The position numbers and the translations under genes were made by a program. From contig OY969814.1 in NCBI GenBank assembly GCA_963703345.1, positions 1,630,967 to 1,694,966 of the forward strand: a DNA stretch of 64,000 nucleotides, read 5' to 3'. Positions 13,507-15,584 of the stretch are shown here, in pieces. Position 1 is the first letter of the stretch. The number at the start of each line of letters is the position of its first letter. The notes below the pieces were generated by a model that saw only the letters and a list, made by a program, of their open reading frames with translations, had not been told where the DNA came from and did not search any database. The DNA is from an uncultured Chloroflexia bacterium. Its GTDB lineage: Bacteria > Chloroflexota > Dehalococcoidia > DSTF01 > JALHUB01.

Positions 13507-14835
13507 CTAAGGCTTTTGTTTGTTGAGTCGCATCTCGATGGCGCGGGCGTGCGCGGTCAGACCTTCGGCGCGGGCGATAGCCGCCGCGGCCGGGCCGAGC
13601 GCGCGCAGGGCGTCTTCGCCGACATCGACGACGTTGGTTATCTTCAGGAAGTCTAGCACGTTGAGCGGCGAGGAGTAGCGCGCGCTGCCGCCGGTAGGCA
13701 TCACGTGGCTCGGGCCAGCCGTGTAGTCGCCCATAGCTTCCGGAGAGGACTCGCCGACGAACAGGCCGCCAGCGTTGCGGACGCCCTCGGCCCAGCGGGC
13801 GGCGTCGCGGACCAGCAGGCAGAGGTGCTCCGGCGCGAACTCGTTTGCCAGCGCCATCGCCTCGTCGAGGTCGGACGTGACGACGATGCCACCGTTCGCC
13901 AGCGCCACGCGGGCCACCGCCGAGCGCTCGATCTGCGCCAATTGCCGCTCCACCTCCTGGTCGACGGCCTTAGCCAGCGCAAGGGAAGGCGTCAGCAGGA
14001 TCGGGCGGGCGAGCTCGTCGTGCTCAGCCTGGGCGAGGAGATCGGCGGCGCAGAGCGCGGCGTCGGCGGACTCGTCGCCGATGACCACCGTCTCGGTCGG
14101 GCCGTACATCGCGTCGATGCCGACGCTGCCGAAGAGCTGCTGCTTGGCGAGGGTGACGAAGAGGTTGCCGGGACCGCAAATCTTGTCGACTCTCGGGATG
14201 GTCTGCGTGCCGAAGGCCAGCGCGGCCACGGCCTGAGCACCGCCGGCGCAGAAGACGGCATCGACGCCGGCGATTTCGGCGGCGATGAGCTTCAGCGGCG
14301 AGACGCGGCCGTCGGGGCTGGCCGGCGTGGCCACGTGGACGCTGGGAACGCCAGCGACTTTGGCGGGAATGACTGTCATGAGGATCGACGACGGGTAGAC
14401 GATGGCGCTGCCGGCCGCGTACATGCCCACGCGCTCGATGGGGCGCACGCGCATGCCGAGACCGTCCTGCAGGAAGCTACGCTGGGTGTGCTGCAGTTGC
14501 AGCTCGTGGAAGGAGCGGATGCGGGCGGCGGCGAAGCGCAGGCGCTCGACGAGGGCGGAGTCGACCTCTCGGTAGGCTGCCTGGGCCTGCTCGGGCGGGA
14601 CCCGGAGCGGCGGCGACGCCACGCCGTCGAAGGCCTCGCCGTAGCGGAGGACGGCGGCATCGCCTTGGGCACGTACGTCGGCGATGATGCGCGCCACGGC
14701 CTCAGCGGGCGAGAGATCGGCGCCGAAGACGCGACCCGTCATCTCGCGGACGTGCTCCGGCACCTCCATCTCGGACAGGGGGCGCCGGAGCAGGACTGTC
14801 TTGCGTCCTTCTTCCGCGCCTTCGACGATCCTCAT
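13507..14835 (-). CDS. hisD: Histidinol dehydrogenase
   Basis: CGPGNLFVT...AEHDELA...GDYTAGPSHVMPTGG motifs; 442 aa. Confidence 0.85.
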   Translation of the reverse strand: MRIVEGAEEGRKTVLLRRPLSEMEVPEHVREMTGRVFGADLSPAEAVARIIADVRAQGDAAVLRYGEAFDGVASPPLRVPPEQAQAAYREVDSALVERLRFAAARIRSFHELQLQHTQRSFLQDGLGMRVRPIERVGMYAAGSAIVYPSSILMTVIPAKVAGVPSVHVATPASPDGRVSPLKLIAAEIAGVDAVFCAGGAQAVAALAFGTQTIPRVDKICGPGNLFVTLAKQQLFGSVGIDAMYGPTETVVIGDESADAALCAADLLAQAEHDELARPILLTPSLALAKAVDQEVERQLAQIERSAVARVALANGGIVVTSDLDEAMALANEFAPEHLCLLVRDAARWAEGVRNAGGLFVGESSPEAMGDYTAGPSHVMPTGGSARYSSPLNVLDFLKITNVVDVGEDALRALGPAAAAIARAEGLTAHARAIEMRLNKQKP

Positions 14836-15584
14836 CGCAGGTACTCCTCAAGAGCGCTCAGGGCAAGCGCCCGCGCTTTCTCCACGAACGCCTCCCGTTG
14901 CTGCGGACTCACGTGCTGTCGCGCCTCCTCCACGAGTTGCGGCAGGGTCTTCATGAACTCCTCGACCTCTTCGGGCGTGGAGACGCCGACGAGGCCGAGA
15001 AAGCGGCTGGCCGTCTTCGGGAAGCGGCCCCAGGTCGGCGGCAGGGACGCCGTCATGACGGCGAGATCGTGCCAGCGACTGATCAGCTCCGGCACCACGA
15101 AATCGACATCGACGGCGTGCGGGCTGGCGACAAGGGCGTCCCGTATCTCGTCCATCGCCGCTCGGTCCCGCCGTCGCTGGAGGTCCATCTCGTACTGAAG
15201 GACGCGGTCCAGGACGTTGGCCCGCGCGCTTCCTCCGAGCGTCGAGTCGGGGCCGAAGAACGGCCGGTAGATGTCGGTTATCCATACTACGTCCATGACG
15301 AGATGGGTCAAGTAGCCCGATACGAACGCCGCCGTGGAGTCGCCGAGCTTCCAGGCGTCCCTGAGGTCGCGGTGAGAGCGGAAGAACGACTCCACGCTGT
15401 CCTGCTCGTCAAGGCAGTCCAGGTCGAAGTAGTGCGACGAGATGCGCCTCTCGCGCGAGAGGACGTGCATGTCCGGGCCGGTCGAGCCGAGGTAGTAGGC
15501 GCCCCTGTCCGCGTCGATTAGCGTGTTCTCGAGGGCGTTTGCCAGGTCGCGCGCGACCGACATGTGGAATGCGAGATGCGGCAA
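14832..15584 (-). CDS. Metal-dependent hydrolase-like protein, translationally coupled between hisD and hisG. The His/Asp-rich N-terminus resembles zinc-dependent phospholipase C / S1-P1-type phosphoesterases.
   Basis: MPHLAFHMSVA..., GSTGPDMH, SHYFDLD, THLVMD His/Asp clusters. 4-nt overlaps with both neighbours. The family call is tentative. Confidence 0.45.
   Translation of the reverse strand: MPHLAFHMSVARDLANALENTLIDADRGAYYLGSTGPDMHVLSRERRISSHYFDLDCLDEQDSVESFFRSHRDLRDAWKLGDSTAAFVSGYLTHLVMDVVWITDIYRPFFGPDSTLGGSARANVLDRVLQYEMDLQRRRDRAAMDEIRDALVASPHAVDVDFVVPELISRWHDLAVMTASLPPTWGRFPKTASRFLGLVGVSTPEEVEEFMKTLPQLVEEARQHVSPQQREAFVEKARALALSALEEYLR

Follow-up and report, generated by a model that had tools for sequence, protein, structure and literature searches.

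A his operon with one additional gene

The 64,000-nucleotide window that we analyzed (positions 1,630,967 to 1,694,966 of contig OY969814.1, assembly GCA_963703345.1, from an uncultured member of the Chloroflexota class Dehalococcoidia) carries a histidine biosynthesis operon on its minus strand, for which family scans gave the gene order hisZ-hisG-X-hisD-hisC-hisB (Table 1). The operon covers steps 1, 6, 7, and 9-10 of the histidine pathway, and X is the only extra gene. The same set of steps is encoded by Escherichia coli hisGDCB together with a histidinol-phosphate phosphatase (HolPase) domain that is fused to HisB. This domain has no counterpart in the HisB of the window, which aligned just to residues 166-355 of the bifunctional HisB model (i.e., its C-terminal half) and is devoid of the HAD phosphatase domain. 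The protein encoded by X is probably a histidine-pathway phosphoesterase that was not recognized before.

X is a real gene that is translationally coupled on both sides. Its TTG start codon is situated 2 nt beyond the hisG stop codon TAG and 8 nt downstream of an AGGAGG sequence, and this choice of start is supported by the N-terminus, MPHLAFH in X, of which the MP..H pattern is conserved in an alignment of 40 homologs. At the other end the X stop codon overlaps the start codon of hisD, and among the 60 species-level loci listed, most have a hisD gene that begins at the last base of the X stop codon or a few bases off; hisZ and hisG overlap by 4 nt. A preliminary description of this stretch had reported a 250-residue gene between hisD and hisG that is coupled to both neighbors and is the only non-his member of the hisB-C-D-x-G-Z run, along with a monofunctional hisB, and the junctions, neighbors, and family matches agree with it on each of these points.

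Table 1. Features of the window, with positions counted from its first nucleotide
Feature	Position	Strand	Description
IS1595-family transposase	9744-10766	+	DDE_Tnp_IS1595 and zinc ribbon; just downstream of hisB
Open reading frame, 188 aa	10761-11327		No family match
hisB	11695-12285	-	Imidazoleglycerol-phosphate dehydratase only, 196 aa; NF002116, 280 bits
hisC, histidinol-phosphate aminotransferase	12269-13438	-	TIGR01141, 320 bits, above cut-off
hisD, histidinol dehydrogenase	13507-14835	-	PF00815, 492 bits; TIGR00069, 482 bits
X stop (TGA)/hisD start (ATG) overlap	14832-14835	-	ATGA, read from the sequence
X	14832-15584	-	250 aa, TTG start; PF00882 subfamily, metalloprotein of the phospholipase C/P1 nuclease fold; presumed cytoplasmic
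X start region	15582-15598	-	AGGAGG at 15593-15598; hisG stop TAG at 15587-15589; 2-nt spacer; TTG at 15582-15584
hisG	15587-16993	-	Tandem fusion of two short-form HisG modules, 468 aa; HisG domain in two stretches
hisZ, regulatory subunit of ATP phosphoribosyltransferase	16990-18252	-	Domain and family matches
mazG	60594-61403	+	Canonical tandem MazG; TIGR00444, 283 bits; only PRA-PH-related protein of the genome

Fold and conserved residues of X

The only Pfam match of X was to PF00882 (Zn_dep_PLPC), with a score of 36.9 bits over residues 7-139 compared to a cut-off (gathering score) of 26.8; the same scan gave no match to PF01503, PF03819, or PF02265, and an NCBIfam search returned no family at E ≤ 0.01, with the models for HisJ/K, HisN, and HisB-N included. 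Many homologs of X carry a precomputed PF00882 annotation. The AlphaFold2 model of X, built on 40 homologs, is all-helical with a predicted local distance difference test score (pLDDT) of 94.3. When this model was exhaustively aligned (VIA) to 48,161 chains of the Protein Data Bank (PDB), the top six chains were all phospholipases C (PLCs) or S1/P1 nucleases, i.e., the clostridial alpha-toxin N-domain (1OLP, Z 7.8), Listeria PlcB (8CQM, Z 7.8), Bacillus cereus PC-PLC (1AH7, Z 7.4), and the nucleases 5FB9 (Z 6.4), 3W52 (Z 6.3), and 8QJL (Z 5.9), whereas the seventh-best chain reached only Z 3.5. The matches span residues 2-250, and residue 2 of X is aligned with the first residue of the mature PLCs. 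The fold thus occupies the protein from residue 2 to residue 250, with no DNA-binding or additional domain. Other searches were less productive: Foldseek of the model against the PDB returned nothing significant (PLC rows with a TM-score of ∼0.42 at most), a profile of X had no relevant match among PDB sequences, and the ESM Atlas, searched by features and by shape, returned only the family of X itself. These results bear out the suggestion in the preliminary description that the His/Asp clusters of X resemble those of phosphoesterases of the PLC/P1 nuclease group, for which it had proposed the PF00882 profile search and a structure prediction.

Fifteen residues are invariant among the 40 aligned homologs (P2, H7, D38, R47, H51, H94, D98, Y106, R107, D126, R127, Q130, D134, W171, and W185). 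When groups with identities down to 25% were compared, P2, H7, D38, R47, H51, Y91, H94, D98, R107, D126, and Q130 were identical in all of them, and Y106, R127, and D/E134 were identical in all groups but one representative each. We therefore see no sign of functional divergence among the groups, as judged from the identity of the site residues. We take P2, H7, D38, H51, H94, and D98 to be the counterparts of the N-terminal Trp and of the five residues that bind the two metals of the core in PLC/P1 structures. The SHYFDLD and H-x3-D motifs resemble PLC ligand motifs, and the spacing of Pro2 and His7 would equal that of Trp1 and His6 in P1 nuclease. Where the His/His/Glu(Asp) residues of the third zinc site would be expected on this assumed mapping, D126, Q130, and D/E134 are conserved instead.

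X begins with M-P-H-L-A-F-H and has no hydrophobic leader; no signal peptide was found when its N-terminus was judged by eye, and X is for this reason presumed to be cytoplasmic. Met1 and Pro2 are invariant in 40/40 aligned homologs, which suggests that Met is removed and that the exposed amine of Pro takes the part played by the Trp1 amine in the secreted enzymes. Both the fold and the conserved His/Asp residues are what one would expect of a metal phosphoesterase. Enzymes of the PLC/P1 group hydrolyze phosphodiesters and 3'-phosphomonoesters, and S1/P1 nucleases are both diesterases and 3'-monoesterases. The PLCs share the whole-length fold and the aligned mature N-terminus with X, but they are only 12-13% identical to it, they are secreted proteins with an N-terminal Trp instead of a Pro that follows Met, and they possess a His/His/Glu third zinc site; unlike their genes, that of X has a fixed place in a biosynthetic operon, and there is no hint of a lipid substrate. 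The S1/P1 nucleases (PF02265) share the superfamily fold; X differs in being presumably neither secreted nor glycosylated, and a nucleic acid substrate is not indicated. Prediction of a complex between X and HisD from two alignments (A1 and A2) gave a score of 0.01, which counts neither for nor against an interaction.

Linkage of X to hisD

We found 281 homologs of X at E ≤ 1e-3, nearly all of ∼250 residues, and only 530 related clusters among 1.84 billion cluster representatives; the family is therefore small and compact. The homologs are almost confined to Chloroflexota. X occurred as a single copy in 113 of the 201 Dehalococcoidia genomes of our census, and its pattern within families was mostly all-or-none; the exception to one place per genome was G111, where X is split between two contig ends. 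The apparent fragments in G111 and G112 reflect these contig ends and are not pseudogenes, and a seemingly fused form (P0271, residues 1-190 of X joined through frameshifts to HisD residues 1 to ∼200) was rejected as an artifact.

X was positioned directly upstream of hisD in 30/30 loci of a class sample, in 20/20 further loci, some with sequences 25-35% identical (8 of these 20 belong to genomes that also contributed to the 30), and in 79/80 loci at the species level, with a contig end cutting the last one. All of these loci are from Chloroflexota metagenome-assembled genomes except three labeled Acidobacteriota, "Bacterium HR24", and "uncultured bacterium". The gene upstream of X was hisG of any type (tandem short form, single short form, or long form with HisG_C), and in families f24 and f8 hisG, hisC, or hisB is located elsewhere, yet X remains with hisD. 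X was also retained in streamlined genomes of 1.0-1.2 Mb (G091 and G179). The link of X to the his operon is essentially absolute. The preliminary description had reckoned with the possibility that orthologs in relatives are never his-linked, and the opposite was found, with X adjoining hisD in every locus examined. As a separate observation, the tandem fusion of hisG, with an internal repeat of ∼28% identity, is conserved at full length in many Dehalococcoidia with and without X alike; other lineages have a single short-form or a long-form hisG.

More distant relatives of X (E ∼1e-24, 258-287 residues) keep the N-terminal motif and the APD and THF(W/Y) motifs. None of the four with readable neighbors is his-linked, and two are beside glycosyltransferase genes: a 271-residue protein (L188 1104-1919) whose gene overlaps the next one and neighbors sugar epimerase, GT4, and TMEM260-like genes, and a 282-residue protein (L169 311-1159) whose gene is beside a GT2 gene. 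These neighbors suggest a role of the wider family on glycan or lipid-linked phosphodiesters.

Candidate functions of X

The genome (2.28 Mb, one contig, 95.85% complete) was searched with the HolPase models, and none of those for HisJ, HisN, or HisB-N reached its cut-off. In this respect the preliminary description, which had seen no HolPase and had proposed X for the missing step, was correct, but generic candidates are present in the form of one inositol monophosphatase (IMPase) and four small PHP proteins. No HisE was found anywhere in the genome either, and the sole PRA-PH match was MazG. The latter is a candidate for the missing phosphoribosyl-ATP (PR-ATP) diphosphatase step by its likeness to DVU1186, a MazG-family PR-ATP diphosphatase known in Desulfovibrio (PMC5764234). 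A second his operon (G000:C1:1860186-1863969; L082 5186-8969) contains, in this order, hisH, the signal peptidase gene lepB (S26), hisA, a GIY-YIG open reading frame, hisF, and hisI; HisI is monofunctional (111 residues), and no HisE analog was seen among the genes beside hisI. Because HisE is also absent, two steps lack an assigned enzyme, and elimination does not single out the HolPase step. The earlier argument that the gene context points by elimination to one missing step could thus not be maintained, with generic candidates existing for both.

Our tentative preference is for X being a HolPase, which would make it a fourth non-homologous kind. Several points favor this assignment: the presence of X with hisD in every locus examined, the hisGDCB-like content of the operon, and two genomes (G153 and G001) that possess X and HisE and have no IMPase-family gene at all. 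The retention of X in streamlined genomes and the invariance of its site residues down to 25% identity speak for it as well. Elimination in these two genomes was not accepted as proof, because 6-7 small PHP proteins remain there. X would be a soluble cytoplasmic metal-dependent phosphoesterase dedicated to histidine biosynthesis, hydrolyzing L-histidinol phosphate to L-histidinol, and its coupling to hisD would ensure that it is made in a fixed ratio with HisD and that histidinol is produced beside the enzyme that consumes it. After removal of the N-terminal Met, the free amine and the carbonyl of Pro2 together with His7, Asp38, His51, His94, and Asp98 may rebuild the two-metal core of the PLC/P1 enzymes, Asp126, Gln130, and Asp/Glu134 may replace their third zinc site, and Arg47, Arg107, Arg127, and Tyr106 would be positioned to bind the phosphate. 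Three HolPase folds are known (PMC5516325, PMC9798254), i.e., HAD (HisB-N), PHP (HisJ/HisK), and IMPase (HisN), and all are unrelated to that of X. HisB-N and HisK share with X the embedding in his operons near hisD, hisC, and hisB, and the PHP-type enzymes are multinuclear, as the site proposed for X would be; unlike the known types, X does not complement the others in its distribution. Unrelated folds have repeatedly given rise to HolPases, and cases of redundant HolPases are documented (PMC5516325, PMC9798254, PMC12220765). The step is the most frequent unresolved one of prokaryotic amino acid biosynthesis, missing in 42/208 prototrophs according to GapMind 2026 (PMC13759103). In the literature that we searched, PF00882 was not mentioned in any paper, and no connection between a PLC-like protein and histidinol phosphate was reported. 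If X is a true HolPase, it would represent a fourth fold for the reaction and the first cytoplasmic biosynthetic role of the PLC/P1 fold, and the assignment could be put to a direct test with a single recombinant protein and standard mutants.

Comparative genomics falls short of proving the HolPase role, and several observations weigh against it. Our census counted the hisD-positive genomes among the 201 Dehalococcoidia, 113 with X and 77 without it, and a HolPase candidate was defined as a HisJ-like protein, a HisN model score of at least 185 bits, or a HAD score of at least 70 bits. Another HolPase candidate was present in 49/113 genomes with X versus 25/77 without it, and HisE was present in 46/113 versus 22/77. 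The distribution of X therefore complements neither step, and the earlier idea that X fills a missing HolPase step gains no support from it. Furthermore, 52 of the 77 genomes without X also have no specific HolPase candidate, and in the 20 operons without X that were inspected hisG abuts hisD or unrelated genes are situated between them, with no substitute phosphatase. The inserted genes (ThiF, PSP1, an amidohydrolase with MarR, HEPN, and a Metallophos protein beside a 707-residue open reading frame) were considered as HolPase substitutes and none was plausible; the exception among these operons is an IMPase gene that diverges from hisD in G007. For these reasons, unlinked generic enzymes evidently can do the HolPase job in Dehalococcoidia. 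In family f40 and 6 further species, moreover, a HisN-like IMPase gene is part of the gene cluster of X, following hisZ-hisG-X-hisD-hisC-hisB on the same strand within 0-3.5 kb downstream of hisB and scoring 228-240 bits on the HisN model versus ∼100 for the next-best model. HisN is above its cut-off in family f24, and families f3 and f32 have HisJ-like genes. The genome studied here encodes one generic IMPase that scored 140.8 bits on the HisN model versus 139.8 on SuhB, and its four small PHP proteins consist of three of the CehA/McbA type and one that is pAp-phosphatase-like. Lastly, by the PLC numbering that we assume, no conserved His occurs at the expected ligand positions of the third PLC/P1 zinc site, which is not conserved.

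The evidence against a HolPase is of the same kind as that against a HisE function but is softer, because IMPase assignments are unreliable, canonical SerB was not found in the 201 genomes of the class sample, and redundancy of HolPases is documented (PMC12220765). In other organisms, IMPase-like proteins with 38-40% identity to HisN serve as phosphoserine phosphatases (PMC13759103). A search for canonical SerB (TIGR00338) at E ≤ 1e-15 was negative in 201/201 Dehalococcoidia genomes, and some of their IMPases may therefore be the SerB enzyme; the same result meant that SerB could not be used to discriminate the identity of the HisN-like genes. The unlinked HisN-like genes of families f24, f18, f36, f6, and f59 had no his genes nearby in twelve loci, and their Pfam-scanned neighbors in f24, f18, and f36 were uninformative. 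HisE (PF01503) went undetected in 130 of the 201 genomes. Thus, three phosphate-handling steps of amino acid synthesis are without an assigned enzyme across much of the class.

Alternatively, X may be a histidine biosynthesis component of a kind not recognized so far, i.e., one with an eleventh function or one hydrolase that serves both phosphate-removing steps; we regard this broader possibility as real but somewhat doubtful. Either version would account for the persistence of X in operons that also carry canonical HisE or HisN-like genes. An eleventh task, by which we mean a useful but dispensable phosphoesterase reaction on a substrate other than the two intermediates without an assigned enzyme (e.g., the disposal of a damaged or wrongly phosphorylated intermediate, or of a compound that inhibits HisG or HisD), is rather unlikely on its own. 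It is the only single-function explanation that no lineage contradicts: X shares the operon of family f18 with hisE (hisE-hisG-X-hisD-hisC-hisB), a family that also carries unlinked HisN-like genes scoring 242-273 bits, it shares the f40 operon with a HisN-like gene, it occurs together with hisIE and a HolPase candidate in three genomes (G066, G159, and G161), and its site residues are identical in all of these coexistence groups, while about half of the class does without X and has no replacement gene in place. On the other hand, no concrete substrate can be named, we know of no organism with such an accessory histidine step, and the retention of X in very small genomes fits a dispensable helper poorly. 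The apparent redundancy with HisN may moreover be spurious, given the unreliable annotation of the IMPase family and the missing SerB (PMC13759103). The version with two activities, in which a promiscuous hydrolase backs up whichever of the PR-ATP diphosphatase and HolPase enzymes a lineage lacks, is improbable. It would account for the finding that among the genomes with X, a HolPase candidate occurs in 49 and an intact HisE in 40, but the two coincide in only 3, compared to ∼17 expected under independence (both are present in 10/77 genomes without X), and S1/P1-type nucleases do act both as diesterases and as 3'-monoesterases (see the title of PDB entry 3W52). The exclusivity is, however, not significant when counted by family (∼1-2 families with both versus ∼3.5 expected), the number of genomes with both rises to 9 when the f18 hisE genes are counted as intact, and the two substrates are very unlike.

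That X is instead a non-homologous PR-ATP diphosphatase, converting PR-ATP, which HisG produces, to PR-AMP and pyrophosphate in place of HisE, is very unlikely. This step is missing in 19/208 prototrophs in the GapMind 2026 analysis (PMC13759103), as it is in the genome described here with its monofunctional HisI and tandem MazG. X directly follows hisG in most lineages, including genomes that have no HisE, and HisE was not found in the families that combine X with HisN- or HisJ-like genes (f24, f40, f3, and f32). P1-type enzymes release 5'-mononucleotides, a reaction formally like the cleavage of a nucleoside triphosphate to the monophosphate and pyrophosphate. Strong evidence against this function comes from coexistence, since 40-46 of the 113 genomes with X carry HisE, mostly in hisIE-sized reading frames, and hisE is in the very operon of X in f18. 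In addition, 55 of the 77 genomes without X are also without HisE, and another enzyme must therefore serve that step, for which DVU1186 sets a MazG-family precedent (PMC5764234). In split operons X stays with hisD rather than hisG. Its PLC/P1 fold, with no match to PF01503 or PF03819, differs from the domains of nucleoside triphosphate pyrophosphohydrolases, and to our knowledge the PLC/P1 fold includes no pyrophosphatase. A role of X other than hydrolysis, in which it binds metal or regulates as a partner of HisD or HisG (e.g., in the metal supply of HisD or in ligand sensing), would suit its strict co-translation with the zinc enzyme HisD, its His/Asp-rich site, and the lack of conservation at the third catalytic zinc site; we consider it very improbable as well, as five of the six two-metal-core residues are invariant in more than 100 genomes, along with the N-terminal Pro and three arginines, a pattern that fits catalysis, and the PLC fold leaves no room for a DNA-binding or extra domain. 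If the HolPase assignment fails, a his-locked X would mean that a pathway studied as thoroughly as almost any other has a new function in it, and knowledge of its function would improve auxotrophy predictions for Dehalococcoidia and other Chloroflexota, which are abundant and mostly uncultured.

The small PHP proteins of this genome could conceivably act as phosphatases for histidinol phosphate or phosphoserine. Three of them are paralogs of 214-230 residues with PHP and PHP_C domains (G000:C1:1411026-1411685, 1716604-1717248, and 1533059-1533751; L084, L085, and L087), of which two pass the model for CehA/McbA metallohydrolases and the third is under the cut-off. Relatives encode 6-7 such proteins per genome.

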